Source: Octopus sinensis
Lineage: Eukaryota
Length of the DNA: 64,000 nt
Direction of reading: 5' to 3'
Assembly: GCF_006345805.1 (NCBI RefSeq)
Contig: NC_043007.1
Coordinates: 76,818,001-76,882,000, forward strand
How positions within the stretch are numbered: the first letter of the stretch is position 1; each line of letters begins with the position of its first letter. The translations under genes were made by a program, and so were the position numbers. The notes beneath the pieces were generated by a model. It did not search any database. It was not told the DNA's origin and saw only the letters and a program-made list of their open reading frames with translations. Below are positions 33,913 through 62,567 of the stretch, piece by piece.

Positions 33913-34032
33913 GATTGGAATGACCACCCAGAGGAAACACCTTTTGGCTTCATACATGAGGAACCTATTTCAACATCTGCATTTAACATAGAGCCTAGAA
34001 AACCTCAAGAGATCTTTACAAAAGGGGAAAAA
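33913..34032 (+). CDS. Repeat-array exon R1, most diverged (DWNDHPEETPFGFIHEEPISTSAFNIEPRKPQEIFTKGEK)
   Basis: CATTTTAG|GAT acceptor as in R2 and R5, TCAACATCTGC core, GAAAAA|GTAGGC donor; 120 nt, phase 0-0, no stop. Confidence 0.6.
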
Positions 34033-34366
34033 GTAGGCTTATAATTTGATATATTGTTTCTGTAAAGACTGTTATTAAGTTATTAGAATATATATTATTT
34101 ATGTGGTTGTTACAGTTGTTGCTACTGCTATTGTTCTTGTTTAGAGACTGGTCAGCTGTGATTAAAAAGACCAGTGACCAAATACATTCCAACTGCCTTT
34201 TTATTTTGTTTTTCAGAGAAAATGTTATCTGGGATCACGTTACCATGGAGTAGGGAAGGGTTCTTTTATAATAGTAGAGTGTGTTTAGAGGGAGGGTTGT
34301 CTGCTATTTCTTGCAGGTAGCAGCTTCGTTGTTGGCTTGTACATTGCTTCTGTTGTTGATGAAGAA

Positions 34367-35222
34367 TCGTACGTGAAGTATTCCACCCACTTCACAGAAT
34401 TGATCAAGGATACTCCCATTGAACCCAACCAGATGGTGAGTCTAGATGTGATAAGCCTGTTCACTGAAGTTTCAACTGGTGAAGCACTAGAAAAACTAGT
34501 GACAGTCACCCATCTAAAAGAATGCACTAGTATACCAATAAGAAACTTGATGGAAATGTTGACCTTCTGTGTAGAAACTACCTACTTCAGTATGGAGGAG
34601 GGTTTAGCTATGGGTTCACCATTATCACCGGTAATAGCCAATACATACATGGAATACTTTGAGAATTTGGCTTTAGGATCAACACCACTAAAACCAACAC
34701 TATGACTACGATATGTTGACGACACCTTTGTACTCTGGCCCCACCAGTAAGATGCCCAAGTGCAGTTAGATCAGGTGAACTCAATAAAGCCATCCATACA
34801 GTTCACAGTGGAAAAGGAAAAAGACAATCAGCTGGCATTCCTGGATGTATTAACATGCACCAAGTATGGATTCAGGGCATCTGTATACTGCAGGCTGACC
34901 TTTACTGGACGATACCTCAACTTCAATTCCCACCAGCCATACATTGTAAAGAGAGGGATTGCTCAGTGCCTAAAACATCGTGCAAAGAATATAAGTAGCG
35001 ATCGTGATACACACCACGAAGAAATGATCAAGCTCAATAACGATCGAAAATAATAACATCGAAAAATGATAATAATAACATCGAAAAATACCTTAGGAAT
35101 GAGAACCCAGGTTTAAAATTTCCTCAAGACACCTGAAGAAGGCTGGAGGGTATATCAGCCGAAACGTGTTAACAACAAACAAGATGAGGACAAATATCCG
35201 TTGAATGTAAATAATGTAAATA
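34367..35222 (+). mobile_element. Penelope-like element RT fragment followed by pLTR-like tail with degenerate hammerhead motif
   Basis: MVSLDVISLFT, GLAMGSPLSPVIAN, RYVDDTF, IQFTVEKE..LAFLDV and YLNFNSH are PLE RT motifs. CTGAAGA-AGGCTG..CAGCC-GAAAC lies at 35133-35165. Confidence 0.85.
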
Positions 35223-35801
35223 GTCTTTGAAGACCTTCTGTACCTATATATAAATAACTTGGGAGAAATATAAATATTTTATTTGAAATTTTATCCTTAG
35301 CTGCAATATTTTAAGTAAAAGTTTTTTTGTTCTGTACTTTACCAGCTGTAATAACTTATCCTGAACTTTTCCAAGTGTAATAACTTGTTCTGTACTTTTC
35401 CTGGTTTATAATCTTAAGAATATTATTTCTCTTGCTAGCATTTTTCCATGTAATCCATGTTTTATCCAGGCTATGCTATTAGGCTAATTGATAATGTGTC
35501 AATAATTTAAGATTTTACCTTACTGAAAATTGAATAATAAATTTAAAGTGTGTGTTGTTGTTGTGTTGTTGTTGTTGTTGTGTGTGTGTGTGTGTGTGAG
35601 GGAGAGAGAAAGAGAGAGTGACAGTATACATTTTATTTATTTTTCCTCATCTTTTTTGAGTGTGTGTGTGTGTGATTGATTGAGAGAGAGAGAGTGATTG
35701 TATAAATTTTATTTGTTTACTTTTTCTTGCATCTTTTTTTAGTGTTTGACTGAGAGAGAGGTATGTTGTCAGAGAGAGAGAGAGAGAGATGTGTCTTGCT
35801 C

Positions 35802-35834
<33 letters not shown>

Positions 35835-36044
35835 AAGGTAGTGTGATAGTGTAAATTTTTTTATCTATTTAGTTTTTCTCATCTTTTTTAGTGGGTGTGT
35901 GTATGAGTTATTGACTGAGAGAGAGAGAGGGGTATTGTCATGTATGTGTAAAACGGCTAGGGTCAGTCACACACACATATACACACACAAACACATGTAC
36001 AGCCATTATCTGTCGTATATACGTACATCCATAATTACATGTAA

Positions 36045-36385
36045 TAATAAATAATAATAATAATTGTGTACAGTGCTCAGGTGCACTACAACTCATCTAA
36101 AGTGTATATATAATCAGGTGTAGTTTCGACGGATTTCGGGAAGCATGAGGGCCTTAAAGGATGCAGTGTCATGGCAGTCAACAACTGATGCAGGCAGTTT
36201 ATTCCATGCTTCAGCAACCCTGAGCGTGAAAAAATGTTTCCGAAAGTCATGGGAGCTGTGCTGTTTTCTGACTTTGTAGGCATGTCCACGTGTGTTAGAC
36301 ACATGGAGATCAAAAAGGTGTTCAGTGTTGTTGTTGGTGAGGTGGTTGATAACCTTGTGGGTGTTTACCAAGTCCGTCGCTAGAC
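36045..36385 (-). mobile_element. 3' end of CR1/L2-group LINE
   Basis: TRGHAYKVRK..FRKHFFTLRVAEAWNKLP..V...FK C-terminal signature and a (TAA)n tail. Confidence 0.8.
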
Positions 36386-37468
36386 ATACATGTTTTTTAT
36401 ATGTGTGCATGTGAGGGAGAGAGAAAAAGCCAGTCACTGAGTGAAGGTGTGTGTCCTCATGACAATTGTTTTTTTTGCATGTATGTATAAGTAGCTAAGT
36501 AAAATTTATGCTATCACTCTCTCTCTCTCTCTCCCTCTATCACACACACTCTGTCTCATGCCCCTCATCAACACAGACACACGTCCATGTCCATTTCCTC
36601 TCTCTTTCACTTTATGTCGACTTCAAACAAAATGTACATTTCCACTCACAAAAATAAATAAATAAAATTATTTTACAGAATTTACCGAACACTGTAAGGT
36701 AACAGCTGAGATGCAAGCGCATACCTTCGAGCTAAAATGAAAGATTGGCAAAATGGCTAGGCTATTGCCAAAATTTTTAAATAATATTTTAATTATTTTC
36801 ATTTTTATAATATAATTGCATTAATTAATACAGATGATGTAATTAAACTAATTGCAAATTAGTGGTATCATTGATAATTTTTTCCTTACTTCAATGATGT
36901 TGGTGACATATATTAAAAGTCCCTTATAAAACTATATTCATAAAAATGTATAGGACTATATCACCTTCAAATTTGAGAAACAAACACTTATAACTTTTTA
37001 CTTTTAAAACTTCATTGCATGAGATTGATACCATGAAATTTCTCGAACTGAGCTCTATCATTTAAACTTAATTAAAATATAGTTTGTTTTTAAAATAAAA
37101 AAAAGTTAATTATACTTAAATCCAATTTTTTGCCTTCCTATATATTTTTTCATGATATTTTACCTCACAACTATGAAATTTTTGTTGCATGGAATCAAAA
37201 CTACGAAAATTTGTTTTTAAAATAAAAAAACTTATTTAGATCTAAACTTACTATAATGTTTCTACAAATTTTGATGTAAACTTTTTTCTACTGGACCAAA
37301 TCTCAATTTTTTTTATGCCAAAATGTAGCTAGGGACCAGCCCTCTTCAAAAATGTTAACAGTTTTCAATTTGGCTTAGAACTGAATTAGTAACAAAGCTT
37401 TGAAGATACTGCATGTGAGTAAATTGCGGCCTTAAGAATATTGTTCAACTACAACTGTAGCTCAATGA

Positions 37469-37880
37469 TACAGGGTGTGGTGAATAAATTGTCGTCTAAA
37501 TTACACAAAAATGAAAATAACAGTGACATCTCATTTTAACAGATATATTCACCAAAATTGCATTAAAATATCTTGAAATGCTAAAGAGTAAATTTATTCA
37601 ATAAAACTGCCATTGGCCTCAACCACAGCTTCCTGACGACTTTTGAATCTCCTGCAACTCTTCTGGATGGTCTCCTTGTTTAAGTTTGTGAATGCTACCA
37701 TAATCCTTGCCTTCAGTTCATCTTTGGTGTTACAAGGAATTTTGTTGGTCTCCTGCTCAACTGCACCTCACACATAATAACCAAGGGGGTTGCAGTCTGG
37801 GGGAGTTAGGTGGTCAGATGTTAGGGGTGATGTGGTCGCAGAAATTGTCTGACAGCTATGACTGGGTCCTCCAGTCAGTG
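37469..37880 (-). mobile_element. Tc1/mariner-superfamily transposase remnant
   Basis: Starts TACAGGGTG (a TA-flanked terminus). The minus strand encodes a degenerate WPPNSPDCNPL motif at ~37780-37822. Confidence 0.65.
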
Positions 37881-37996
37881 GGTGCTTTATTGATATCTGC
37901 CAGAATTTTTTAATCCCTTTTTTTCCTTCTAACTATATTATATATATATATACATATATATGTATATGTACATATATATATATATATATACACACA

Positions 37997-38027
<31 letters not shown>

Positions 38028-38793
38028 CGCCTGGCCCCCGTGCCGGTGACACGTAAAAGCATATCCGTTCGTGGCCGTTTGCCAGCTCTGTCTGGCACCT
38101 GTGCGGGTGGCACGTAAAAAGCACCCACTACACTCACGGAGTGGTTGGCGTTAGGAAGGGCATCCAGCCGTAGAAACACTGCCAGATCTGACTGGGCCTG
38201 ATGAAGCCTTCCAGCTTCACAGACCCCAGTTGAACCGTCCAACCCATGCTAGCATGGAAAACGGACGCTAAATGATGATGATGATGATGATATTTTATAT
38301 ATATATATATATATATGTATATAATTGAACTATCCGCTGGTAAAAATGAGTAGTACCTGTATTTCAAAGGGCCAGCCATGTCACATTTTGTGTCACACTG
38401 AATCTCTCTGAAAACTATGTTAAGGATTCGTGTGACTATAGAATGCTCCCCCACTTGCACATTAATTTTATGAGCAGGCTGTTCCATTGATCGGATCAAC
38501 TAGAACCCTTCTCATTTTAATGGATGGAGTGCTGATTAATTGAACCATCTTGTATAGCATTCTGTGTACTGTCATACAATTTTTCTTTTATGTGAGTTAA
38601 GCAAAAACAATTGCACACTATATAAACTTGCCCGATTATTGTACCATTGGAGCATGAAATTTATAGTAGCGCTAAATCCTGTGTTTGTTAAATAATATTT
38701 ATCTTTCATTGGATGGAGTACTTTTTTTGTTGATCCTACCATTAATGGAACAGTGCACTTTATGTATATATATATATATGCTCTTCATTTTAG

Positions 38794-38937
38794 GATACTA
38801 TTAAATGTGTAGTCTTAGCTAGTGACATCAAAACATGCAATGAATGCAAAGATATTGAACCTACTTCAGCATCTGCTCCACCTAGAAAAACTACTGAGAC
38901 CCAGGATTTCAATATGGATCTGGCTGAACAAGAAAAA
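38794..38937 (+). CDS. Repeat-array exon R2 (DTIKCVVLASDIKTCNECKDIEPTSASAPPRKTTETQDFNMDLAEQEK)
   Basis: TTTTAG|GAT, AAA|GTAAGT, 144 nt, phase 0-0, CxxC retained. Confidence 0.8.
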
Positions 38938-39034
38938 GTAAGTTTATATTCTGATATAATTTATGTCCTTAATGCATTTATTATGTTATTGAGACTTTTA
39001 TTCTTTTATTTGTTTCACCTAAATTTGTTTCAGC

Positions 39035-39620
39035 CTAAATCAGTAAGGGACCTGGGTATCGGCATGAGTGATGATACCTCTTTCCAAGTGCACATTACCA
39101 GGATGGCCACAAAGTGCAGACAACTGGCTGGATGGATCCTGGGAACGTTCAGGGCCAGAGAGAAAGAAACCATGATGGTCCTCAGCCACCTGGATTACTG
39201 CTCCCAGCTATGGTCACCTAACAGTGTAAAATTAACAGTGGCCTTGAAGCAATCCAGCAAAGCTTCACAAAGGAGATCGTCTCGTTGCAATAGCTCAGCT
39301 ACTGGGATAGGCTGAAACAGCTAAGATCTGGAAGATCCTGGAAGGAATTGAGCCAAATTTTGCATTAAAAGCTACACCAATGCCAGAATGGCTCGACACT
39401 GCACAGTGCTAAAGATCCCAGCAATGCCATCATGCTTCAGGATGGGTTTCAGGGGCCCATAGCTTTTTAATATTCTTCCAAAGAGCTTGAGGAACCTACA
39501 CAAAGTGAATGTTTTCAAATCAAAACTGGACCTCTTCCTGCCGAGGGTCCCAGATGAACCTACCTTGCAGCAAAAGGAGTAAATGAGAGTAGCGACATCA
39601 AGCACTTTTATTCACCAAAT
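39035..39620 (+). mobile_element. Decayed CR1/L2/Jockey-group LINE RT 3' fragment
   Basis: VRDLGI, SHLDYCSQLWSP and FKSKLDLFL motifs. Confidence 0.7.
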
Positions 39621-41052
39621 GCCACATATTAGAGGAGGCTCTCAATAATAACAGTGTAGCAAAACGCATATGTATACTAAACTAGAGATTGGCAGACATG
39701 CCTTGTACACACACAGTTGATACCGTTCAGCTATGGCCGTCATCGATCCATGGGAGGCTACTCTTCTTTCTCTTGGAATATGTTATAACTTTTCACTACA
39801 TTTCATTTTGTAACCGACACTAACCCAACCACCAGGACTATCTTTTACTCGTTTCAATCATTTGACTATGGCCATGCTGGGGCTCCATCTTGCAGGGTTT
39901 GGGTTGAATGAATCAACTCCAGGACGTACATATAGTGTTATTGTATAGAGTGGAAGTTCAATACGAAATTTTGAACTCATCTTGTGGTTGATAATCCATT
40001 ACCTTAAATTTGAAGCCATTAAGTCCTTAAACACTATTTTACTGGGTTTAGTCTTTCGACTGTCACCATGATGGGGTTTCACCTTCAAAAATTTAATTGA
40101 TCATACTGACCTCAGTACATATTTCAATCTGGCATGAACTGCTAACTTTGAGACATAGTGGGACACAATACTCGATTTAACAACAAATGTAAACACACAC
40201 ACACGTACATATTAGGTGCAAGAATGAATGTGTGGTTGAGAAGTTTGCTTCCTAACCACATAGTTCCACGTTCAGTCCCTCTGCATGACACCTTGGGCAA
40301 GTGTTTTCTGTTATAACCCTAGGCCAACCACTGACTTGTGACTGAATTTGGTAGATGGAGACTGCAACGTTGTTCATCAGTAAAATGACCAAAAATCATG
40401 TTTATAAAGAAGAGTTGTTTGCTTCATACTCCTTTTGTGCTGATTCTGCCCATAAGAAAGGAACAAATAATGCAATGTAGCTGTAGGTCATAACACATGG
40501 GCAATGTCGGGGTGCATTGCTAGTGTATATATATATATATATCATCATCATATATCATCGTTTAGCGTCTGCTTTCCATGCTAGCATGGGTTGGACGGTT
40601 CAACTGGGGTCTGGGAAGCCAGAAGGCTGCACCAGGCCCAGTCTGATCTGGCAATGTTTCTACGGCTGGATGCCCTTCCTAACGCCAACCACTCCGTGAG
40701 TGTAGTGGGTGCTTTTTACATGCCACTGGCGTGGCCAGATGAGGCTGGCAAACGGCCATGATCGGATGGTGCTTTTTACGTGCCACATATATATAATTTT
40801 ATTTGTTAGGGAATAAAAATTCCGGCATCACAGGGGTTCAAATTATTCTCAATGAGGAAATATATATTTTCATTTAGAGATAGTAGGCGCCTTCATCTCG
40901 CCATAAAAAATAAATTTAGTTTAAATACTTACTACTTTATAACTTGGCTACATGTGTTTCATGAGGTACATTTCCCGGTTCCTTAACCACCGCCGTTTTG
41001 CTGGAACCATTCATAAAATATAATCCCAATCATCATATATTTATCTATATAT

Positions 41053-41103
<51 letters not shown>

Positions 41104-41377
41104 TAATCCAGACATGAAAACACAACAACACGAGGGCGTGGAACAAGTATAGTGTTATTGGACGCTCAGGAAAAGAAAGAAAGAAGGAAGATTTAACGTT
41201 TCGAGCGGTGCTCTTTGGCAGAAACATAGGAAAAGGAAAGATCCAAGGAAGGGAAGACAGAGGAAAAAAAATCGATACACATGCTGTCACACACACACAT
41301 ATATATATGTATACACACCTCCAGCATAAACTCAGTTGTATCTCAAGTGTAATTTATATAAATGCATTTCTTTTTAG

Positions 41378-41539
41378 GATTCTGTTAACTACTTAATGGG
41401 TGGTGGCAAAGTGGAAGAATATGATATATATAAAAATAGGAAAGATGCTTCAACATCTGCTTCACCCAAAGAGATCAATCAAGCCCAAAAGACCAGAGAA
41501 TCTGAAGAGATCAACATAGACCTTGCTAAACAAGAACAG
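41378..41539 (+). CDS. Repeat-array exon R3 (DSVNYLMGGGKVEEYDIYKNRKDASTSASPKEINQAQKTRESEEINIDLAKQEQ)
   Basis: TTTTTAG|GAT, CAG|GTATGT, 162 nt, phase 0-0. CxxC is replaced by YxxY. Confidence 0.85.
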
Positions 41540-42074
41540 GTATGTTTATATTACATATTTTATCAAACTCTGTCCACACAGTTATCAAGTAATATATTTA
41601 TATATATAATATCAAATCCATTTCCAAATATTATTTTGGTACTAACTTTGGTGACTACTGTGCAATTCATGTGTGGAATTTGCAGTGTAAATTCTTGTTT
41701 TGGAGGTATATAGAGCCCTGTTTCACTGTGGGTAGGACCAAGAAAGAAATATTCCGTCAAGCAAGAGAAGTATCTCTTATTATAAAAGGCAGATTTTATC
41801 TGCCTCCCTTTGGGAGTTATACAAATCTACAATATAGGATTTCTTCAATTACAATTTACCTAGCATTTTTAAGAGTACAATGCATCGCGTCATGCCAGGT
41901 CCAGTTTTTAAAATTTAAACTCCAATTAAGCAAAATTTACAGAAAACTCACATTCTGGTGTGTGTGTCAAATGCTTTTCTTAGTCTGGTTTACACCACAC
42001 GCAAACGCACACACACAGTGGGAAATGAATAAACTGAAACTAATTCACTGTGTGTTGACAGGTAGAAAATAGAA

Positions 42075-42117
42075 TGCGATGGCGATGGCTATGGCGATGG
42101 CTATGGCGATGGCGATG
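42075..42117. repeat. (GCGATG/GCTATG)7 hexamer microsatellite
   Basis: Read directly. One of many microsatellites; (TA)n, (CA)n, (GA)n and (CAT)n occur throughout the window. Confidence 0.9.
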
Positions 42118-42515
42118 TAATATTTGTTTCTCTCTATGACGCTCATAAAAGCATTGATGTACATGTGTGCGTGCGTGAGTGTGTGTGTGTCATTCCTCAC
42201 ACACACGCATACACATACATATATGAGAGTGGCAAACACAAACGTTTCAAACAACTACATACAAACACGTGTGTGTTTGTTATTAGTAAAAAAAGGCGCC
42301 AAAACACAACTCACTTATCATTCCAACACATTTGCAAAGACACACGGACGGTCGAATAACAATACAGAAAAGGTAAATTGGTTTTTATTTTACTCTGTAT
42401 ATATTTTATTATATAATATATATAGATATATGTATATATAATTGCAGTATGAAACAGTGTTTATGTATAAACAGACGACACTTATATATAGTTATTAATA
42501 AATGTATGCATCCGT

Positions 42516-43346: not shown

Positions 43347-43454
43347 GAAAAACCAAAAAATATTTTATTCTTTGTAAATGTTGTGTTCAAAATAACATTT
43401 TCTTTTAAGAATGTGTATATAACAAAGTATGTGTATATAACTACGTGGCTTATA

Positions 43455-43852
43455 TCTTTATATATAAGAGTGAAGTTGTGTGTCTGTCTCCTACGATTTA
43501 GATTCGTAACTACTCCCACATTTTGCGGTGTAGTTTAACCAAAAGCGGGTATCTTATAGTCGTGATTCATATCGAGCCCTTCTGGGTATTAGCGCGCATC
43601 TACGATGAGTCTACGATTTAAAAAAAATTTACCATCATATTTTTCCATTTTAATGCATATTTTTCGTTATTATATAAGGGAAGTAACTCTCTAAAAATAT
43701 CTACGATGTGTCAACGATTTAAAAAAAAAATTACCTTAATTTTTTTTCAATTTTTAATGCATTTTTTTGCTATTTTTTGGCTATAACTCTCTAAAAATGC
43801 TTATATAGTTATTTCCCTTACAAACCCGAGCAACGCCGGGCGATACTGCTAG
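43455..43852 (+). mobile_element. Non-autonomous Helitron
   Basis: A|TC 5' end, subterminal hairpin CCCGAGCAACGCCGGG, CTAG|T 3' end, no TSD. Confidence 0.75.
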
Positions 43853-44668: not shown

Positions 44669-44704
44669 ATATATGTGTGTGTCTATATATACATACATAT
44701 GTGC

Positions 44705-44797
<93 letters not shown>

Positions 44798-45025: not shown

Positions 45026-45026
45026 C

Positions 45027-45837: not shown

Positions 45838-45987
45838 GATACTGTAAAATATGTAGTGGTTGGTGGTAACATTGAAAGATGTAAGATATGTAAAAATATT
45901 AAACCTACTTCACCCAACGAGATCAATGAACCCCAAGAGACTGGACAACCTGAAGAAATTGACATAAACCTTGCTAAGCAAAATCAG
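45838..45987 (+). CDS. Repeat-array exon R4 (DTVKYVVVGGNIERCKICKNIKPTSPNEINEPQETGQPEEIDINLAKQNQ)
   Basis: TTTTTAG|GAT, CAG|GTAGGT, 150 nt, phase 0-0. Confidence 0.85.
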
Positions 45988-47674: not shown

Positions 47675-47824
47675 GATACTGTTGAATATGTTGTGTTCGG
47701 TAGTGATGTGGAAAGATGTAAGGTATGCAAAAATCTTAAAACTGCATCAACATCTCCTAAAAAGATTAATCAAGCCCAACAAACCAGACAACCTGAAAAG
47801 GTCAACTTTGCTAAACAGGAACAG
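47675..47824 (+). CDS. Repeat-array exon R5 (DTVEYVVFGSDVERCKVCKNLKTASTSPKKINQAQQTRQPEKVNFAKQEQ)
   Basis: TTTTAG|GAT, CAG|GTGGGT, 150 nt, phase 0-0. The ORF track translates it in the wrong frame. Confidence 0.85.
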
Positions 47825-49562: not shown

Positions 49563-49706
49563 GATACTGCTGATTATCTAATGGCTGGTAGAAAGATGGT
49601 AAGATGTAAGATATGTAAAAATTTTAAAGTTGTTTCAACATCTGTTCCACCTTATGAGATCAGAGAACCTAGAGAAATTGACATAGACCTTGCTAAACAA
49701 GAACAG
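49563..49706 (+). CDS. Repeat-array exon R6 (DTADYLMAGRKMVRCKICKNFKVVSTSVPPYEIREPREIDIDLAKQEQ)
   Basis: TTTTTAG|GAT, CAG|GTAGGT, 144 nt, phase 0-0. Confidence 0.85.
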
Positions 49707-49782: not shown

Positions 49783-51443
49783 TCATCAGCTGGATGCACA
49801 GGGTCCAGAGGAGGCTGGCAACGTCCATGATCAGTTAGTGGTTTTTATGTGCCACTGGCATGGACACCAGTCAAGGCGGCACTGGCATCGGCCATGTTCA
49901 GATGGTGATTTTTACGTGCCACCAGCACGGGTATCACAACTACAATTTCCATTTGATTTTTATTTTGATGTTGATGTACTTGACTCAATAGGTCTCCTCA
50001 AGCACAGCAGGTCGCCCTACGATCGAAGGTAAGCACAGCAGGCTGTCCTTGGAGTCATGAACTCACTTCATTTGTCGGGTCTTCACAGTCACAGCATATC
50101 TCCAGAGGTCTTGGTCTTTTGTCATTGCCTCTGTGAGGCCCAACATTCGAAGGTCATGCTTGACCACCTCATCCCATATCTTCCTTGGTCTACCTCTTCC
50201 CCGGATTCCTTCAGTTGTTTGGGAGTGGCAGTTCTTCACATATCTCTCCTCATCCATCCATAGTACATGACCAGACCAATGCAAACTTCTCTCCTGCATG
50301 CCACATCCAATGCTTCTTATGTCCAACATTTCTCTCAGGGCGCTTACACTCTGTTGTACGTGCACACTGACATTACACATCCAGCAGATCATGCTAGCTT
50401 TATTTCTTTCAAGCCTACGCATGTTCTCCGCAGTCATGGCCCATGTTTCACTGCTGTGAAGCATGCTCGTTCGCACACATGCATCATACAATCTACCTTT
50501 CACTCTGAGTGAGAGACCCTTTATCACCAGTGGGGGAAGAAGCTTTCTAAACTTTGCCCAGGCTATTCTTATTCTAGTGGTAACACTCTCTGAGCATCCA
50601 CCCCCACTACTAACTTGGTCACCTAGGTAGCAGAAGCTATCAACTACTTCTAGTTTCTCCCACTGGAGTGTGATGGAATCTATGGTGTCTATTGCCCCTG
50701 TGCATCTGCCGCACACGAAAGCTATCTTCTTGAATAATTTTCCTTTGATGTTGCTGCACCTCTTATGTGTCCATAGCTTACATTGGGTACAACTTATGGA
50801 ATTTCTACCTACACCTTTTATACAGATCGAGCAGGGCCACCTACATGAAGTAAACCTTCTTACTTACTAGTACTTTTGTCTTTGCTACATTGACCCTAAG
50901 GCCTTTTGATTCTAAACCTAGCTTCCATACCAGAAATTTCTTTTCTAGTTCCGGTAGTGATTTTGCGATGAGGGCCAGGTCATCAGCATACAGGAGCTCC
51001 CATGGGCATCCCATCTTAAATTTCTCTGTCGTTGCCTGGAGGACTATGATGAATAAAAGGGACCCCCTCCTTCTACCTGGAATTCTACTCATTGCCAATC
51101 CTAACCTTACTAACGGCCTCTCTGTGTAGCCCTTATTAACTATTCGTCAGTCTCCAGTTTCCACATCACCCACCAGATAAGGGAACGAGGGACCCTATCA
51201 AAGGCTTTCTCCAAGTCCACAAAAGCTAAGTATAGGGGAATATCTTTAGCTAGGTATTTCTCCTGCAGTTGTTGAACCAGGTATATGGCATCAGTGGTGC
51301 TTGTACCTGGCACAAAACCAAACTGAATCTCATCTAAGCAGACTCTCTCCCTAATGAGATGGACTATGACCCTCTCTGTGACCTTCATCACCTGATCCAG
51401 CAGTTTGATACCCTTGTAGTTATTTCTATCTAGAGCATCACCA
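49783..51443 (-). mobile_element. 5'-truncated RTE LINE (RT through 3' UTR)
   Basis: QFGFVPG..TTDAI, AFVDLEKAFDRV, LLYADDLAL, FCYLGD and GRGRPRKIWDE in ORFs 50063-51391(-). Confidence 0.9.
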
Positions 51444-51518
51444 TTATATTTTTCTAATATCTACATGTAAATTTATTTGCATCTTAAAGATAATTTATAT
51501 AAGTATGTTTGTTTTTAG

Positions 51519-51680
51519 GATACTGTTGATTATGTAATGGCTGGTAGAAAGATGGAAAGATGTAAGATATGTAAAAATTTTAAAGTTACTTCAACATCTG
51601 CTTCACCCAAAATGATCAGCGAACCCCAAGAGACTAGGCAACCTAGAAAAATTGACATCGATCTTACTAAACAAGAACAG
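51519..51680 (+). CDS. Repeat-array exon R7 (DTVDYVMAGRKMERCKICKNFKVTSTSASPKMISEPQETRQPRKIDIDLTKQEQ)
   Basis: TTTTTAG|GAT, CAG|GTAGGT, 162 nt, phase 0-0. Confidence 0.85.
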
Positions 51681-51744
51681 GTAGGTTAATATATTTTATC
51701 TCTATCCAGATAAACATAGTTATCAAAATCTCTCTCTCATCAAT

Positions 51745-53507
51745 ATCTATAAAGCTGAAATGCAAAAAGTTTGTTTGTCTCATTTTGCGATTTGAATAGG
51801 TTAAGGGGCATTAGATGGGGTCAGATTGGATCCAAAATTTACAGGGACATATAAAAAGAGGCGAGGAAGTGAGTGGACTAGGTTAGAAATCCCTATCTCA
51901 AAAGCTGTGGTTACTAGGGCAACAAAGCCCACACTTTGACAAGTGTTTGTCATTTCTCCCTTTCACATATCACCCTCTCTTCCTCCATCTCTCTCTTTCC
52001 TTCATTCCCTCCACTTTCTATAATGACGTTTGACAGCTTCGCCGTCTCTCTATCACTCTTTCTCCCACCACCTCTCTCATTGTACATCTGTCTGTATCTA
52101 TAGATAGAAAGCGTTGACAGCTGCAAAAGATTAAATATTCCTGCCACAGGTCTTTTAGAATGGTGAATTATTACGTTGATACAAATTGGATTTTTATGTG
52201 AAAAGGGGTCTAAATGGGGCTGGAAGGGGATTAAAATTTACAGGAGGGGGTGTTTAGGAATTCTCTGTTACATCAAGCTAAAAAATTTGTGCCAGCCTTT
52301 AAATCGTCAATGTGTTGCTGCCCGTCATGAAGAAGTTTTGAATGCCTGCCATGGTGAGTCTACTGTTGTGAGAAAGAATCACTTCAAAACTTGGTGTTTG
52401 GGAATTTTCTTTTACATCAAGTTCAAAATTTTGCGCCAGCCGTTAAACTGCCAGTACGTTGCTGTCCGTCATTTAGAAGTTTTGAATCCCAGCCATAGTG
52501 AGTCTACTATCCTCAGATTCTATCCCTTCAAATTTTGGTTTTCAATATTTTTTTATTTTTATTCAGCTCGCAAGTTTGTCTGCCCCTTTTAAATGTTAGT
52601 GTTTTGCTGTCCACCTTGAAACAGACTTTTTCGTTGTTACTGCCTGATATTTATGATTGATCTTTCAAAATATTTTCTTTCTCAACTTACTCAAGATCTT
52701 TTGTTCTTTTTAAATGGGAGATAGATAGATAGAGAAAGATAGAGAGTAAGAGAAAGCAAGGGAGAGTCCGAGAGAAAGGAAGAGTAAGAGAGTGGGAATG
52801 TGAGAGAGAAAGGAGAGAGAAACAAAGGGGGAGAATGTGGCGATAAGAAACAGAAAGGAAGCAACAGAAAGTAATAACCACACCCTCACCCATACGTAGA
52901 GTGGCTCACCTTAAGCTAGTATATCTATACATATAAATTTGACATGGATGATTCTTTCTTGTCTTCGGATTCACAGTCAAACGGCTGGGTGGAATTGTGC
53001 GAAAAATTATACAGATGGGTAGAATGATCCAGTGGTGATGGTGGGCTTTGTATTTTTGTCATAGCTTCCATGGTTACCGAGGTAATCTACTATTATAATA
53101 CTCTTGTGTTTATGAATGAGAAAGGAAGGGGTGATGTCATACTTGGTAGTGGGATGATGAAAACTGTATGCTGAAAAAATAAATCAAACAGCGCTTCAAC
53201 TCTGTGTGAATATATGTGTGTGTATGTAAAAGGGGCTATGTGAATGTGTGTGTGTGTGTATGCATGTCCACGTGGAATGGAAGTGGGATGGTTCATCTTT
53301 GTCTGCTTAGTATTTGGGTTTATTTTTTGATTTGGTTGAATCTTGGTTGTTTTTTTTGTTGGTCAGTTATTTTTAGCATTTTGACAGAAGTCATTCTAAA
53401 ATTATTCTTTAATATAAGCGTGCCCAAACAAGTTGAATGCTTACACAGAGCAGGTTTTACAGCCACATCATCAAAACCAGCCGGATGAAATTAGGCTTAG
53501 CTGATAG
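51745..53507 (+). mobile_element. Probable Helitron-type non-autonomous insertions (two adjacent)
   Basis: TCTATA-type starts at ~51746 and ~52924 and a GCTAG|T end at ~52919. The block is absent from the paralogous introns after R8 and R9, and there is an internal ~140-bp tandem duplication at 52250-52510. Confidence 0.45.
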
Positions 53508-53527
53508 TGTATATATATATATAGATA

Positions 53528-53581
<54 letters not shown>

Positions 53582-53762
53582 TATGTGTGTATATATCATC
53601 ATCATCATCAACATCATCATCATCATCATTTAACATCCATTATCCATGCTGGCATGGATTGGATAGCTTGATGTTAGCTGGAAAGCTGAGGAGCTGCACC
53701 AAATCAAACTGGAGTCTGGTTTGGTATGGTTTCTACAGCTCGATGCCCTTCCTAACGCCAGC

Positions 53763-53800
<38 letters not shown>

Positions 53801-54090
53801 CCTTGTGTAGCCCTAGTTGAATTTGATTGAGGAGATTTACGGTTAAAAACATCCTGGCATGGCCATCCTTTCTATTTTCCTTTTCAGACCACATTATTCA
53901 GTATCCTCATTCTTTTTTAAGACACTGTTTCTAGTCAGGTTATGTGACCATCTAAAGCAATGGTTCTCAAATGGGAGCCTATATAAGATTTTTGGGGATT
54001 CATGAAAAGATTTTGGCTGAGATGTATTTATTACATGAAACAGCTTGATTTCTTTCTCTAATGTTTTACTTGGTTGAACCAACACAAGTT

Positions 54091-56727
54091 CATCATCATC
54101 ATCATCATCGTTTAACATCTGTTTTCCATGCTGGCATGAGTTGGACGGTTTGGCAGGGGACTGGCAAGCCAGGAGGCTGCACCAGGCTCCAATCTGATTT
54201 GGCAGTGTTTCTACAGCTGGATGCCCTTCCTAACACCAACCACCCCGAGAGTGTAGCAAGTGCCTTTTACATGCGACCGGCACAGGAGCCAGTCAGGCAG
54301 CACTGGCATTAGCCGCAACTTCAATTCTCATTTGATTGTGATTTGATTTGAATTCAATTTTGATTTTGATTTTACTTGACTCAATAGGTCTCCTCAAGTG
54401 CGGAATGTCATCTGACGATTCAAAGGTACTTTTTAAATGGGCTGGTTGTGCAAAACTAGTGTAGGCTATGGCTGTCATCTCACTTTACTTGCTGGGTCTG
54501 CTTAATCACAGCCTATCTCCAGAGGTCTCGGTCTCTCATCATTGCCTCTGTGAGACCCACTGTTCGAAGGTCATCCTTCATCCCATGTCTTCCTGTGTCT
54601 CCCTGTACCCCGGGTTCCTTCCACTGTTAGGGAGTGACACTTCTTCATACAGTTCTCCTCATCCATACACAGTACATGACCATACTAGCACAGTCATCTC
54701 TCTTGCACACCACATCTGATGCTTCTTATGTCCAACATTTCTCTCAGGGTGCTTACACTCTATAGTGTGTGTACACTGACTTTACACATCTAGCAGATCA
54801 CACTAGCTTCATTTCTTTCAAGCCTACGCATGTCTTCAGCAGTCACAGTCCATGTTTCACTGCCGCACACCTGCATCATACAATCTCTAAGTGAGAGGCC
54901 CTTTGTCACCAGTAGTGGTAGGAGCTTTCTGAACTTTTGCTAATCTTATACTAGTGGCAACACTCTCTGAGCATCCACCCCCACTACTAACTTGGTCACC
55001 TAGGTAGCAGAAGTTATCAACTACTTCTAGTTTCTCCTCCTGGCATGTGATGGAATCAGTTTTCTGAGCATCTGCAGTGTTTATTGCCCCTGTGCATCTG
55101 CCCTACACAAAAGCTATCTTCCTGGTTAACTGTTGCTGCACCTCTTATGCTTATAATGGATACATCTTATGGAGTTTCTAGCTACACCTTTTCTGCAGAT
55201 CGAGTAGGGCCATCAGCCTGAAGGGGTTTGTAATGTGTTTGCCTTCCTACTTATTAGGACTTTGGCTTTTGCAACACTGACTCTTAGGCCCTTCAATTCT
55301 AAACTTTGCTTCCACACCTGAAATTTCTTCTCTAGTTCTGGTAGTGATTCTGCTATGAGAGCAAGGTCATCAGTGTAGAGGAGCACCCAGGGGCAACCTG
55401 TCTTGAATTCCTCTGTTATTGCCTGGAAGACTATGATGAATAAGAGGGAGCTGAGGGCTGATCCTTGGTTAACCCCTACTTCTACCCAGAATTCTTCATT
55501 ATACTCATTGCCGACCCTTACCTTACTAACGGCATCCCTGTACAGGACCTGTACAGCTCTTATTAACCACTTGTCAATCCCCAGTTTCCACATTGCCCCC
55601 CAGACAAGGGATCGGAGGACTCTGTCAAAGGCTTTCTCCAAGTCAACAAAAGCCAAGTAAAGGGGTTTATCTTTGGCTAGGTATTTCTCCTGCAGTTGCT
55701 GAACCAGGAATATAGCATCAGTGGTGCTTCTACCTGGCACAAAACCAAACTGTGTCTCATCTAAGCAGACTCTCTCCCTAATTAGTTGGGCTATGACCCT
55801 CTCCATGACCTTCACCACCTGATCCAGTAGTTTGACACCACTGTAGTTATTTCTGTCTAAGGCATCACCTTTACCTTTGTAGCAGTTGATTATGGTGCTG
55901 CTACTCCAGTCATTGGGTATGACTCCTTTGTGAACTACCTGGTTTACAATGTGGGCGACTAAGCCATAACACCACTTGATATTTTAAGCATCTCAGCAGT
56001 GATTCCTGATAGACTGGAGGCTTTTCCTGACTTCATATCCTTAATTGCTTTATTTACCAGGGTACTCTCTATTCGGGGAGCTGGACTCTCTACCGGGACA
56101 ACATTTGGCAGGCTCTCCTCCTCCCATTCATTCTCCACATTAGCAACCTTTCATAATGGCTTCTCCTAGCCTCTTTCTTTGCAGAATCATTAAAAACAAG
56201 TGCACCATCATCCATGCAGACACATTTCTCTCCTGTGACATCACAATTTTCGCTCACGCACTGTCTTGCAATCCGAAATACTTCAGTTCCTTGGTCCTCA
56301 CATCGTTGAACTTTGGCAAACTTCTTCTTTTCTGCTTTTCCCTTGTTATGTATACCTGTTTCTCAGCCTCTCTTCTGGCTATCTGGTAGAGTTACCTGCT
56401 ACTCCAACTCTTCCAGGCTTTCCAGGCCTGTTTCTTTGCTCTAAAGGCCTTGTCTACTGTATTATTCCACCACCACATTACTCTAGGTCTGGAAGGGACT
56501 TTGCACCAGCCACAGATTTGGTCTGGGTCGCTCAGTAAGCTATCCTGTAGTAATTTTCAGTTACCCTGTATGTCCAAAGTCTGTAGTTCCTCTTCCTTCT
56601 CATCAAATTTCTCAATGAAGATGTCCCTAAATATTTGAACACATGAAGGGTTCTTTAGCTTCCAAACCCTTCTTTTTTACATTAGTCTGCTTCTTGGCAT
56701 CCTTCTGGCCATGAGTATAAAGTCACT
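54091..56727 (-). mobile_element. 5'-truncated RTE LINE (~2.6 kb)
   Basis: ORF 55213..55818(-) is an RT core and there is a (CAT)n tail at 54091. The flanks CAAGTT|AATG are contiguous in the paralogous intron at ~60103-60112. Confidence 0.9.
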
Positions 56728-57553
56728 AATGTGTGAAAATCAAACTATGAATTTTGAAAGAAGTACCTATAAAATTAGCTTTTAAACATCAAAAGGCTAT
56801 GGGGTGGGGACCAGCAAGCAGAGGTGGAGGTCCACCAGAATAAAGTAATAATCAAAGGGGACCATAGGTGAGAAGTGGTTGAGAATTACTGATGTAGAGG
56901 TTCCCTCATTATATCTTTATGCAACTGCTGTTGTTATTGTTGTTGTTTAGCTCTAGGCCAGTTCTGGTCATGCAGACTTTGATTAAAAGGCATTCCGGTT
57001 GTGGCTATCACACCTTTCTATGTGTTTCAGGCATAATGTCTCAAAGATGATATTACTAGTGTATCCTTTTTTTTTAAAAAAGAAAATGTGTAATTTGAGG
57101 GAGTTGGCTTCTACTTCTGGCAAGTAATGCCTCCAGGTAGGAGCTGTAAATGTCATGGAGATACTGCTTACTTCCTCACTATATCATGAACTACACAGTC
57201 ACAATCCTTATGTGCACACACACGTGTGTGTGTCTGTATTTGTTAGCAATAATCCTGAGACAGAGTGCCTGCAGATAAGTCGTAAATATATTTACAAGCA
57301 TAACCATATATTTAACCTTACTGTAGAATATTTAAACCACCAAGATCTCTTTTCTTAGAATGATTTCAAAAGGAACTCAGCTAAATTTCACCTGGTTGTT
57401 ACCAGCTCATCAACTGTATTAACTTTATCTCTTCTATAAATTTTCACTTGTTTCATTTTTCACAAGTAGCTGTAAACTACTGTTCATCTGTGTTGAATAT
57501 ATCACTTAAACATACACACAAACTGGTTATGACTGTGTTGTTCAATTTTGTAG

Positions 57554-57682
57554 AGCTCTGTTTGTAAGATATGTAAAAATTTTCAAGTTGCTTCAACATC
57601 TGCTCCACCCAAAATGATCAGCGAACTTCAAGAGACCATAGAACCTAGAGAAATTGACATAGACCTTGCTAAACAAGAACAG
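57554..57682 (+). CDS. Repeat-array exon R8, 5'-deleted, using a cryptic acceptor (SSVCKICKNFQVASTSAPPKMISELQETIEPREIDIDLAKQEQ)
   Basis: The normal acceptor is deleted. TTTTGTAG at 57546-57553 gives a 129-nt phase 0-0 open exon ending CAG|GTAGAT. It could alternatively be a pseudo-exon. Confidence 0.55.
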
Positions 57683-57929
57683 GTAGATTAATATTATATT
57701 TTATCTCTATCCAGATAAACGTAGTTATCAAAATTTCTCTGTCATATATCTATATCTATATATATATATATATACATTATCATCATCATCATCATCATTT
57801 AACATCTGTTTTCCATGCTGGCATGGATTGGATAGCTTGATGTGAGCTGACAAGTGGAGGAACTGCACCAAATCAAACTGGAGTCTGATTTGGTATGGTT
57901 TCTATAGCTGGGTGTCCTTCCTAATGCCA

Positions 57930-59812
57930 GAGAGAGGTTTGGAGAGGCCACTATGAAAGGTTGCTCAATAAAGAAAATGAATGTGAGAAAGAGAGTCTGC
58001 CAAATGTCGACCCCACAGAGGGACCAGCTATCTGAGTTGACAGTACCTTGGTAGATAAATCAATTAAGAGTATGAAGACAGGGAAAGCCCCTGGCCCATT
58101 AGGAATCTCTGCAGAGATGCTCAAAATATGTGGTAGTGTCGGTTATAGCCTAGTCACCCGTATAGTTAACCAGGTGATACACGAAGGAGTCATACCCAAT
58201 GACTGGTGTAGCAGCACCATAGACATATGCTACAAAGGTAAAGGTGATGCTTTAGATACAATTAATTACAGAGCTCCTCTCTGCTGACGACCTTGCTCTA
58301 ATTGCAGAGTCAGAACTAGAGGTGAAGTTTCAGGTTTGGAAGCAAGAATTAGAATCGAAGGGCCTTAGAGTCAACCTAGCTAAAACCAAAGTCCTAATAA
58401 GTAGGAAGGCAGACAAACCACAAATCCCTTCTTGTAGATGGCCCTGCTCGATCTGTAGAAAAGGCTTAGGTATAGACTCTATAAGATATACCCAGTGTAA
58501 GCTATGGACACATAAGAGGTGCAACAATATCAAAGGAAGGCTAATTGGGAAGAAAATTTTTGTATGTGGCAGATGCTCAGGAGCAATAAACACTGAAAAT
58601 GTGCAGAGAACAACTTCCACCACATTCCAGGGAGAAAAACTAGAAGTAGTTGATAGCTTCTGTTACCTAGGTGACCAAGTCAGTAGCAGGGAAGGGTGCA
58701 CTGAAAGTGTAGCTGCTAGAATAAGAATAGCCTGGGCAAAATTCAGAGAGCTCTTACCACTGCTGGTGACAAAAGGCCTCTCACTCAGAGTAAAAGGTAG
58801 ACTGTATGACACATGTATACGAACAGCCATGCTACATGGCAGCAAAACATGGGCTGTAACTGCTGAGGTTATGCATAAGCTTGCAAGAAATGAAGCCAGT
58901 ATACTCCGATGGATGTGTAACGTCAGTGTGCATACTCGATAGAGTGTAAGTACCTTGAGAGAAAAGTTGGACCTAAGAAGCATCAGATGTGGTGTGCAAG
59001 AGAGATTACTGTGCTGGTATGGTCATGTGGTGAGAATGGATGAGGAAAGCTGTGAGAAAAAGTGCCACACCCTAGCAGTTGAGGGAACCTGTGGAAAAGG
59101 TAGACCCAGGAAGACCTGGGATGAGGTGGTGAAGCACGACCTTCGAACATTAGGCCTCATCGAGGCAATGGCTAATGACTGAGACCTTTTGAAAAATCCT
59201 GTGCTTGAGAAGACCCGGCAAGCCAAGTGAGACCATAACCTGTGGCCTATGCCAGGGATATAACCAGCCCACTTATGCATACCTTTCCTTCATTGGACAC
59301 TAAGCTATGCTTGTGAAGACCTGTTGAGGCAAGTGAAATCGAAGTCAAATTTGATGACTGGCATCTGTGCTAGTAGAACGTTAAGAGCAGCATCCAAGTG
59401 TGATCGTTACCAGAGCAGCTGATTGGTTTCCATGCTGGTGACATGTAGAAAACACAATTTGAGTGTGAACATTACTAACGTTGCCTTTATAGCACTTGTG
59501 CCGGTGGCACATGAAAAAACATTCGAGCGAGGTCATTGCCAGTGCCGCTGGACTGGCTCCTGTGCAGGTGGCACATAAAAAACACCATTTGAATGTGGCT
59601 GTTGCCAGTACCACCTGACTGGGTCTCGTGCCGGTGGCACGTAAAAGCACCTACTACACTCTCAGAGTGGTTGGCGTTAGGAAGGGCATCCACCTGTAGA
59701 AACTCTGCCAGATCAGATTGGAGCTTGGTGCAGCCATCTGGTTCACCAGTCCTCAGTCAAATCGTCCAACCCATGCTAGCATGGAAAGCAGACGTTAAAT
59801 GATGATGATGAG
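57930..59812 (+). mobile_element. RTE LINE with internal RT deletion, through 3' UTR and (GAT)n tail
   Basis: KTGKAPGP, NYR fused to LLxADDLAL at ~58270, FCYLGD and GRPRKTWDEVVK. Same family as, and opposite orientation to, the copies at 49783 and 54091. Confidence 0.9.
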
Positions 59813-60997
59813 GAGGAGGAGGATGATGTAGCCCCAGTTGAATTTGATTGAGGAGCTTTATGGTCAAAAACATCCTGGCATGGCCATCCTTTCTGTTTTA
59901 CTTTTCAGATCACATTCAGTATCCTCATTCTTTTTTAAGACACTGTTTCTAGTCAGGTTATGTGACCATCTAGAGCAATGGTTCTCAAATGGGAGCCTAT
60001 ATAAGATTTTGGAGGATTCATGTAAAAATTTTGGCTGAGATGTATTTATTAAATGAAATAGCTTGATTTCTTTCTCTAATGTTTTACTTAGTTGAACCAA
60101 CACAAGTTAATGAGTGAAAATCAAAATAGGAATTTTAAAAGAAGTACCTATAAAATTAGATTTTAAACATCAAAAGGCTAAAGGTTGGGGACCGGCGGGC
60201 AGGGGTGGAGGTCCACCAGAATAAAGTGGTTGTCAAAGGGGACCATAGGTAAAAAGTCGTTGAGAATTACTGATGTAGAGGTTCCCTCATTATATCTTTA
60301 TGCTGCTGCCGTTGTCTTGTTGTTTAGCCCTAGGCCAGACTTTTGATTAAAAGGCATTCCAGTTGTGGCCATCATAACTTTTTATGTGTTTCAAGCATAA
60401 TGTCTCAAAGATGATATTACTAGTGTATCCTTCTTTTTTTTTAAAAAAAAAAGGGGAATTTGAGGGAGTTGGCTTCTACTTCTGGCAAGTAATGCCTCCA
60501 GGTAGGAGCTGTAAATGTCATGGACATTCCTCTTACTTCTTAATTATACCATGAACAACACAGTCACAATCGAAATGCATACACATGTGTGTGTGTATTT
60601 ATTAGCTATAGTCAGAGTGCCTACAGATAAGTTGTAAATATATTTAAATGTATAGCTATATGTTTAATCTCCCTGTGGAATATTTAAACCACTAAGATCT
60701 CTTTTTATAGAATGATTTCAAAGGGAACTAAATTAAATTTCATCTGGTTGTTATCAGCTCATCAGCTGCATTTACTTTATCTCTTCTATCAATTGTTACT
60801 TGTCACATTTTTCACAAGTAGCTGTAAATTACTGTTCGCTTGTGTTAAATGTATTGCTTAAATAGTACAAACAAGCTTGTTATGAGAAAGTTGTTCAATT
60901 TTGTAGAGTTCTGTTTGTTAAAATATATTTTTCTAATATCTACATGTAAATTTATATGCATCCCAAGTATAATTTATTTAACTGTTCTTCTTTTTAG

Positions 60998-61159
60998 GAT
61001 ACTGTTGAATATGTAATGGTTGGTAACAAGATGCAAAGATGTAAGATATGTAAACAATTTAAGGTTGCTTCAACATCTGCTTCACCCCAAATGATCAGTG
61101 AACCCCAAGAGACCATAGAACCTAGAGAAATTGATATAGACCTTGCTAAACAGGAACAG
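60998..61159 (+). CDS. Repeat-array exon R9 (DTVEYVMVGNKMQRCKICKQFKVASTSASPQMISEPQETIEPREIDIDLAKQEQ)
   Basis: TTTTTAG|GAT, CAG|GTAGGT, 162 nt, phase 0-0. Confidence 0.85.
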
Positions 61160-62059
61160 GTAGGTTTATATTATATTTTATCTCTTTCTGCAGATATACA
61201 TAGTTATCAAGATCCCTCTCTTTTGTGCTTAGATATATATATATCATCATCATCATCAATTTGCATCTGTTGTCCATGCCAGCCTGTGTTGGACTGTTTG
61301 ATTGGAGGTGGCAAGCTGGGGAGCTGCATCAGACTCCAGTCTGATTTGGCATTGTTTCTACAGTTGGATGCCCTTCCTAGCACCAACCACTATATATATA
61401 AATATATAAATATATATATATATATATATACACGCATATATGTATATATGTTGTTGTGTGGCCTCTGGTTAATTTGATTGAGCAGGTTCATGATGAAAAA
61501 CATCCTAGCGTGACCAAGATACTGTCTCCAGCAGTTCATGCGACCATCTAGAGCAGTTGTTCTCAAACTGGGGTCTGCGGTCCTCTAGGGGACCCAAAGG
61601 GATGCTGAAGTGTTGTGAAAGCAGGTGGCTTGTGACAGTTAAGTTAAAAAATTTCAAGACTTCCAATTTTTCACATGCTATCATACTTTTTTGTAGGAGC
61701 TGTAAATGTCATGGATACTCCTCTTATTTCCCAACTATATCATGAAATGCACACACATACACACACACACACACACGCATGCATGTGTGTATTTATTAGT
61801 AATAGTCTTGGGACAGAGTGCCTTCAGATAAGTTGTAAATATATTTACATGTATAGCCATATATTTAACCGTGTTGTGGAATGTTTAAACCACCAAGATC
61901 TCTTTTTGTTGAATGATTTAAAGAACTCAAGTAAATTTCACCTGGTTGCTACCAGCTCATCAACTGTATTAACTTTATCTTTTCTAGCAATTGTTACTTG
62001 TCTCACTTTTCACAAGTAACTGTAAACTATTGTTTCGTTGTATTGAATGTAGTGCTTCT

Positions 62060-62270
62060 CCCTTTTGATACTAATCTGCATGAAATTGCTTCTGGCTCTG
62101 TAGTACAAATGTCTCGTTTTCAAAAGTTCTGAATTAAAATCTTCCACCAAACCTTTGTCATAATTTATGTTACTAACACTAAGTTACTTTACTAAATTCT
62201 TTGTTATATTTAGAATTAATTGAAAGAAATACAGAGCATCTCAACAGAAATATGATAACAAAAGAATTAA
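62060..62270. mobile_element. Degenerate copy of the piggyBac-like MITE
   Basis: Homologous to 13492-13712. It sits where paralogous introns have an empty CTTAAACATACAC site. Confidence 0.75.
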
Positions 62271-62405
62271 GCATACACACAAACTGGTTATGAGAAAGTT
62301 GTTAAATTTTGTAGAGTTCTGTTCGTTTAACTATATTTTTCTAATATCTACATGTAAATTTATATGCATCCCAAGTATAATTCATTTAACTGTTCTTCTT
62401 TTTAG

Positions 62406-62567
62406 GATACTGTTGAATATTTAGTGACTGGTAACAAGATGCAAAGATGTAAGATATGTAAACAATTTAAGGTTGCTTCAACATCTGCTTCACCCAAAAT
62501 GATCAGTGGACCCCAAGAGACCAGACAACTTGGAGAAATTGATATAGACCTTTCTAAACAAGAACAG
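62406..62567 (+). CDS. Repeat-array exon R10 (DTVEYLVTGNKMQRCKICKQFKVASTSASPKMISGPQETRQLGEIDIDLSKQEQ)
   Basis: TTTTTAG|GAT, CAG|GTAGGT, 162 nt, phase 0-0. Confidence 0.85.

Follow-up and report, generated by a model that had tools for sequence, protein, structure and literature searches.

The stretch of Octopus sinensis DNA analysed here (contig NC_043007.1, positions 76,818,001 to 76,882,000; 64,000 nucleotides (nt), hereafter the window) carries a BTB-BACK gene whose downstream exons form an array of paralogous repeats, ten of which had been described in an earlier note as a hidden array attached to that gene. The gene corresponds to O. sinensis LOC118765495, which is uncharacterised, and has orthologues in O. 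vulgaris (CAI9729897.1) and O. bimaculoides (LOC106876992); the array is not hidden, the gene being already annotated in three Octopus species. Its attachment to the BTB-BACK gene was borne out at the level of gene models, as exon 4 is joined to the array in the models of the three species, and the 14 O. sinensis isoforms match the exons and the array letter for letter. The gene is, almost certainly, composed of a BTB-BACK head, a linker of 661 amino acids (aa), up to 14 repeats of ~54 aa, each encoded by one exon (11 of them with one CxxC motif), and a Cys-rich tail, and the encoded protein measures ~1,600-1,770 aa. With the BACK exon as query, 3 proteins, all from Octopus, were retrieved out of 581 candidates. 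No paper naming either LOC118765495 or LOC106876992 was found by full-text search, topic searches listed nothing concerning it, and the accessible part of the supplement of PMC11202624 contained no LOC1187-type ids.

Organization of the array and of its host gene

The ten exons (R1 to R10) were all found where the earlier note had placed them, on the + strand; each is flanked by AG and GT, and its length is a multiple of three (120, 144, 162, 150, 150, 144, 162, 129, 162 and 162 nt, in order). Nine of them start with TTTTAG/GAT (the slash marks the exon boundary), the exception being R8 (TTGTAG/AGC), and they end in CAG/GT (8/10) or AAA/GT (2/10; R1 and R2). The exon upstream of the array is, as claimed, of phase 0-0, and every array exon is in phase 0 with a length that is a multiple of 3. 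For R8, the exon exists at the coordinates proposed, but its acceptor is not the native one and is used by none of the 14 O. sinensis models. The figure of at least ten exons holds as a minimum: a DNA profile of the ten exons, searched in 184 kb (the window and the next 120 kb of the contig), gave 14 matches at E <= 6.6e-12, all consecutive and on the + strand, the next match being at E = 0.16. This test is circular for R1 to R10; R11 to R14, which lie beyond the window, were absent from the profile, yet they are used by the public gene models. A CxxC motif, which had been attributed to every exon, is present in 8 of the 10 (11/14 overall) and missing from R1, R3 and R14; modules have two Cys, and R2 has three. 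The introns of the array measure 955-5873 nt and contain retroelement fragments (Pfam RVT_1 at 55213-55983).

The four upstream coding exons amount to 969 codons and end in phase 0. Because an AG acceptor lies 5 nt before the ATG, an upstream exon of the 5' untranslated region is implied; it was not located in window 1-21300, where 78 open frames of at least 55 aa (low-complexity frames filtered out) gave no Pfam match at E <= 0.001. Isoform X3 begins at Met41, and the N-terminus of the longer product, MGTRFS, fits the pattern MGxxxS. On the full-length protein, Pfam recognizes BTB (PF00651, E = 7.7e-20, residues 46-150) and BACK (PF07707, E = 3.4e-16, residues 170-254), and apart from these two nothing in the protein exceeds the Pfam cut-off, the exon 4 linker included. 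Part of exon 4 is present in 19 of the 24 sequencing runs listed, and half or more of it in 6 of the 24; none of the runs listed as containing it is of RNA, which has no bearing on expression. The tail exon consists of 10% Cys (CHYC, CCCC, CCAH), is 87% conserved and occurs once in the genome. It has no family match and no usable match in the ESM Atlas, and may form a separate small metal-binding domain.

Table 1. Exons of the repeat-bearing BTB-BACK gene. Plain coordinates refer to the window; L001 is the adjoining locus, whose first base is window position 64001.
Feature	Coordinates	Strand	Description
Coding exon 1	21364..21709	+	ATG, first part of BTB (Pfam BTB E=8e-14), donor GT
Coding exon 2	23761..24247	+	End of BTB, and BACK (Pfam BACK E=9e-18), AG/GT ends
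Coding exon 3	24839..24929	+	91 nt, brings the phase back to 0
Exon 4	27814..29796	+	1983 nt, phase 0-0; 661-aa Ser/Asn/Lys-rich linker, net charge +16
R1	33913..34032	+	Divergent first repeat, without CxxC; missing from the O. vulgaris model
R2	38794..38937	+	Repeat exon, CNEC
R3	41378..41539	+	Repeat exon, both Cys replaced (YDIY)
R4	45838..45987	+	Repeat exon, CKIC
R5	47675..47824	+	Repeat exon, CKVC
R6	49563..49706	+	Splice sites intact; six codons shorter than its orthologues
R7	51519..51680	+	Repeat exon; source of the 5' part in hybrid repeats
R8	57554..57682	+	Damaged duplicate; an in-frame intronic AG alone remains
R9	60998..61159	+	Repeat exon, CKIC
R10	62406..62567	+	Repeat exon, CKIC; 92% identity to R9
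Intron after R10	62568..64000	+	Gene runs on past the window end into L001
R11	L001:2623-2766	+	Repeat exon beyond the window
R12	L001:3907-4044	+	Damaged repeat exon, native AG lost
R13	L001:5000-5134	+	Repeat exon beyond the window
R14	L001:7039-7167	+	Repeat exon, without CxxC
Terminal exon	L001:9105-9410	+	101-aa acidic Cys-rich tail, TGA, AATAAA just downstream

Identity of the repeat module

As the earlier note had supposed, the module corresponds to no known domain: none of the ten exons has a Pfam match above the cut-off, and the best match among PDB sequences is at E = 0.46. No profile of a known zinc finger or knuckle matched, and no single module contains four ligands. When a profile of the 14 repeats was compared with 1.84 billion representative proteins, 2 matches were obtained, one of them the Octopus protein; a bacterial pilin-related match (E = 3e-5) was dismissed as spurious, its best stretch covering profile positions 23-47, outside the CxxC. 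In a second protein search, only three Octopus proteins matched among 8,000 candidates, and a further search, in which 8,000 candidates were scored, gave no shorter transcript-derived protein carrying the repeat half. The repeats had no usable match in the ESM Atlas. Provisionally, the module would appear to be confined to Octopus, in libraries whose coverage of squid, cuttlefish and Nautilus is uncertain. Within the O. sinensis genome, all matches fall in this locus (9/9 in the protein search, 9/9 in the DNA search and 2/2 with R13), counts that are lower bounds. A transposon-derived exon was also considered and rejected, no dispersed copies having been found in the genome by these searches.

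Use of the repeat exons in public gene models

The statements on splicing made here rest on public gene models viewed as protein sequences, 18 in total (14 from O. sinensis, 3 from O. bimaculoides and 1 from O. vulgaris). The number of repeats per model is 7-12 in O. sinensis, 12-14 in O. bimaculoides, where isoform X1 carries 14/14, and 11 in O. vulgaris, and no model has a single repeat. Judging from these models, the default transcript is likely to chain most of the repeats, mostly in a constitutive manner. R6 is skipped in all 14 O. sinensis models despite textbook splice sites, and its orthologue is used in both other species.

A hybrid repeat is found in 13 of the 14 O. sinensis models, joining the 5' part of R7 to the 3' part of R8 (12 models) or of R10 (1 model), the joins falling at homologous positions inside the direct repeat. 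As deduced from the proteins, the 12 R7/R8 hybrids allow no GT-AG, GC-AG or AT-AC placement in a two-piece join, and the R7/R10 join allows one GT-AG placement. Such hybrids would fit mis-mapping, template switching by reverse transcriptase or an RNA donor with a different allele; they would be accounted for if the donor had an intact R8 allele or one with a genomic fusion (window 51519-57682). Since 13/14 carry a hybrid repeat, the O. sinensis models overstate skipping, and near-identical exons have probably given rise to artefacts among the 14 annotated isoforms. As for the skip joins themselves, six of nine lie within 11-23 nt of identical sequence, and just 3 nt are shared at the skip of R3, the jump to R13 and the O. 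vulgaris skip of R1. Some exon skipping is plausible. Cassette skipping that varies the number of repeats, as in the proposed combinatorial isoform generator, is allowed by the frame, which any subset of exons keeps, and occurs in the models, but much of the evidence for it looks like an artefact of alignment or template switching.

Birth, loss and conservation of the repeat exons

The array grew by tandem duplication of an exon together with its flanking intron, and its units are still being gained and lost. R6 to R10 are 84-92% identical in DNA and homology extends into the introns upstream of R6, R8, R9 and R10 (75-91% over ~110-850 nt), from which it follows that exon and intron were duplicated together; because the exons are symmetric, gain or loss of a unit keeps the frame. 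In a tree of 39 repeats, with no rows omitted and 54 columns (flagged as few), 10 of the 14 units pair 1:1 between O. sinensis and O. bimaculoides in well-supported clades, and the central R7 to R10 do not. Unequal crossing-over is expected to leave such stable ends and a centre that turns over. Of the 14 units, 12 retain intact native splice sites. For R8, alignment with the R9 unit showed that a 124-bp deletion took the native acceptor and ~14 codons; its AG at 57552-57553 is an ancestral intronic AG, also seen upstream of R9, R10 and R11, and R8 is probably a pseudoexon or an allele that has been damaged. In R12 the native AG is gone and, compared with O. bimaculoides, the first codons do not keep the frame; use of a nearby AG would yield an in-frame 132-nt exon, and the public models begin at a non-AG site. 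The O. vulgaris model lacks counterparts of R1, R8 and R12.

Between O. sinensis and O. bimaculoides, identity amounts to 270/278 residues (97%) in the BTB-BACK head, 598/686 in exons 3-4, 88/101 in the tail and 546/677 (81%) in the repeats. Against this last figure, the repeat Cys are identical at 23/23 positions (naive p ~0.007), and in 39 aligned repeats, whose rows are not independent, 31 have the full Cys pair, 8 lack it altogether and 0 have just one of the two. The ratio of nonsynonymous to synonymous rates (dN/dS) among paralogues is 0.54 (0.32-0.90) for the mid-age set R3/4/5/7/9/11 and 0.66 (0.43-0.99) for all repeats, the pairs not being independent; the first codon of R12 and those first codons of R8 that derive from intron were excluded. 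From the dN/dS values and the Cys conservation together, it follows that constraint is weak overall and concentrated on the Cys pair.

The BTB-BACK head and its nearest paralogue

The head best matches the structures of KEAP1, KLHL3, KLHL11 and KBTBD2 (E from 5e-18 to 7e-16), with which it shares the succession of BTB and BACK. Unlike these BTB-BACK-Kelch proteins, the octopus protein has no propeller, as no Kelch repeat family was found at E <= 0.5 in the three full-length proteins (3/3), its C-terminal 1,350 aa match no family, and it is without the glutamate of the phi-x-E motif. In PMC3616122, this motif is situated in the alpha3/beta4 loop of BTB (M83-S84-E85 in KLHL3), and E85A is reported there to disrupt severely the binding of KLHL3 to Cul3. 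Its place aligns to I88-N89-H90 (against KEAP1, KLHL3 and KBTBD2) or to Y87-I88-N89 (against KLHL11), with no glutamate in either case, and residues 88-90 of O. bimaculoides are S-N-H. The O. vulgaris record bears the label 'actin-binding IPP', which does not fit; IPP is a Kelch protein, and the octopus gene is not a member of KLHL/IPP.

The gene's nearest paralogue within the genome, a BTB-BACK frame of 833 aa without introns, lies on contig C5 (L013:3476-5977, - strand) and is 33% identical over 251 aa. It has neither Kelch nor phi-x-E, starts with MGSVES (again MGxxxS) and ends in unrelated Glu/Gly/Arg-rich tandem repeats, which are continued in an overlapping frame (L013:2877-3524), suggesting a frameshift or an assembly indel. 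Both genes may represent a small octopus subfamily of BTB-BACK proteins that lack Kelch and whose repeat tails are independent.

Other features of the locus

A 264-bp inverted repeat of 89% identity, resembling a miniature inverted-repeat transposable element, lies at window 25274-25948, in the intron between exons 3 and 4, and is a possible substrate for double-stranded RNA editing. Decayed copies of one family of retroelements bearing a reverse transcriptase occupy introns in both orientations (26078-27036, 49951-51446, 54346-56285 and 57929-59354), one of the frames of this family having RVT_1 and another a PHD-like finger. Just downstream of the gene lie fragments of a long terminal repeat retrotransposon (approximately L002:3100-9100, - strand) with gag-protease-reverse transcriptase-like and integrase-like frames, as judged by eye. 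Further downstream are two similar trypsin-family protease exons on the + strand (L004:5514-5888, with a Pfam Trypsin match, and L006 near 8970) and, on the - strand of L008-L010, an immunoglobulin-domain membrane protein that by eye resembles LRIG. The trypsin-family exons and the LRIG-like gene are useful as synteny anchors.

Discussion

Of the two readings offered in the earlier note, a lineage-restricted, repeat-expanded protein is the better one. With moderate confidence, we view the product as a dimeric, largely disordered, multivalent thiol/zinc scaffold repeat protein, most of whose exons are chained by default; the thiol/zinc scaffold role taken by itself is tentative. Dimerisation of the BTB domain is established for BTB-BACK proteins, and in the octopus protein BTB would form a dimer, probably without recruitment of Cul3, the MGxxxS start possibly anchoring the protein to the membrane. 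The repeats would be mostly unfolded spacers with one CxxC half-site each, such that in the dimer two chains, long and largely disordered, would each present up to eleven half-sites. Half-sites of neighbouring repeats, or of the partner chain, could then pair through Zn2+ or oxidise to disulfides, and through such thiol cross-links the protein could serve some specialised cell type as a multivalent scaffold. The symmetry of the exons would mainly allow evolutionary gain and loss and, secondarily, leaky skipping; going by the public models, occasional skipping would alter the number of repeats rather than choose one exon.

Several observations weigh against this reading. AlphaFold2 renders one repeat as a low-confidence hairpin with the CxxC at the turn (pLDDT, predicted local distance difference test, 53) and no confident fold, and its model of the array (800 aa, drawn as long strands in a stack, with a mean pLDDT of 33) was unreliable and was not used. 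The dN/dS of the youngest repeats, R6 to R10, is 0.69 (0.31-1.75) and indistinguishable from neutral. A conserved I83-T84-E85, five residues upstream of the expected phi-x-E, could substitute for it. The putative N-myristoylation site at the MGxxxS start is a consensus match. Besides the loss of R6, the O. sinensis models show seven distinct skip patterns (R3, R4, R10, R12, R9-10, R9-12 and R4-10), each in single or paired models, and the three joins sharing 3 nt are poorly explained by artefact and are better candidates for true skipping. Apart from these observations, a Foldseek search with the single-repeat model gave no match at E <= 0.001, and a predicted complex of two R9 copies with zinc (score 0.04, mark 0.32) was not used as evidence either way.

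The rival explanations partly overlap the one that we prefer. One of them is a regulated cassette array, in which tissue- or stage-specific skipping would produce a ladder of isoforms differing in the number and kind of CxxC repeats. It draws on the preservation of frame in every subset of exons, the span of repeat numbers within O. sinensis (7-12) and O. bimaculoides (12-14), the three joins with 3 nt shared, the distinct identities that the outer repeats keep across species, and the 13-repeat O. bimaculoides form, which has its own UniRef entry; we nevertheless rate it as rather unlikely, as R7 hybrids without canonical splice placement in 12 of 13 cases (deduced from proteins) and skip joins in 11-23 nt of identity (6/9) are what mis-mapping or template switching would give, and NCBI sources do not list the two shorter forms from O. 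bimaculoides. A further idea, an octopus-evolved "zinc zipper", is improbable; in it, a membrane-anchored BTB-BACK dimer would align two chains with up to eleven CxxC half-sites each, paired through Zn2+ or disulfides, and regulated skipping of symmetric exons would set the length and valency of the zipper according to tissue or stage. A Dscam-type, mutually exclusive cluster with one repeat exon per transcript, a kind of use that the earlier note had mentioned, is scarcely credible. What the array shares with such clusters (as defined in PMC9013439) are paralogous exons in tandem, of equal phase and similar length. All 18 models, however, chain 7-14 repeats, the introns are long enough (955-5873 nt) to permit splicing from neighbour to neighbour, double inclusion keeps the frame, and no docking or selector complement common to the repeats was found in an exact-match test of 300-400 nt flanks. 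In this crude test, 111 of 112 comparisons gave longest complements of 7-14 nt (controls: means ~9, maxima 12-26) and the remaining one a self-overlapping complement of 22; two isolated matches of 14 nt lay above their control maximum of 12, with no pattern across repeats.

Two further rivals concern the function of the protein rather than its splicing. The earlier note had called it Cul3-adaptor-like, and in its full form this would be a substrate adaptor of Cul3 with the repeat array in place of the Kelch propeller, serving as a multivalent arm for substrate binding. The BTB and BACK domains, including the BACK/3-box region, are indeed present, the best matches are all of the KEAP1, KLHL3, KLHL11 and KBTBD2 type, the head is 97% identical between species, and I83-T84-E85 is conserved near the expected motif. 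The adaptor role is doubtful and, in our estimation, improbable: the glutamate aligns to His or Asn depending on the register, O. bimaculoides has S-N-H, the nearest paralogue has D-K-L at the motif places, and E85A in KLHL3 is reported to disrupt Cul3 binding severely (PMC3616122). Quite improbable, too, is a neutral accumulation, by which unequal crossing-over of an intron segment rich in transposable elements would have inflated a tolerant disordered tail with functionless repeats. The high dN/dS (0.54-0.69), the decay of R8 and R12, the absence of R6 from the O. sinensis models and the conservation of the repeats, lower than that of any other part of the protein (81%, with the head at 97%), would suit it, but the Cys are kept at all 23 positions and lost only pairwise, length changes of intact exons are all in frame, native splice sites persist in 12/14 units and ten units are kept 1:1 across species.

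The scaffold repeat protein that we favour finds its closest parallels among proteins built by tandem exon duplication, such as obscurin, nebulin, NBPF20 and Drosophila dpy (listed in PMC9013439), with which it shares many paralogous exons in one gene encoding a long repeat protein; here too one repeat corresponds to one symmetric exon, duplicated with its flanking intron. The octopus array differs in its module of ~54 aa with one CxxC, which matches no family and is placed on a BTB-BACK head. The insect genes lola, mod(mdg4) and fruitless likewise combine a constant BTB head with duplicated Cys-containing exons; these genes use alternative terminal exons with complete zinc fingers, whereas the octopus exons are internal, with donors and one CxxC each, and BACK is present. 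As an analogy of mechanism only, the lone CxxC of the Rad50 zinc hook is a half-site, and a second chain is needed for the full zinc site; the octopus repeats have no sequence similarity to it in a PDB sequence search, and the octopus chain has many half-sites where Rad50 has one.

Tandem duplication of a symmetric exon is a textbook route and the gene already exists in database models, so that it does not constitute a new system. What is new is a CxxC repeat of ~54 aa, without a family and found in Octopus records only, on a KLHL-type head that has neither Kelch nor the glutamate of the Cul3 motif. The locus shows clearly how a protein repeat array arises and is pruned one exon at a time, and its stages can be seen across three species. 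Should regulated skipping be seen in long reads and zinc be bound in trans, the protein would be a multivalent cross-linker tuned by splicing.

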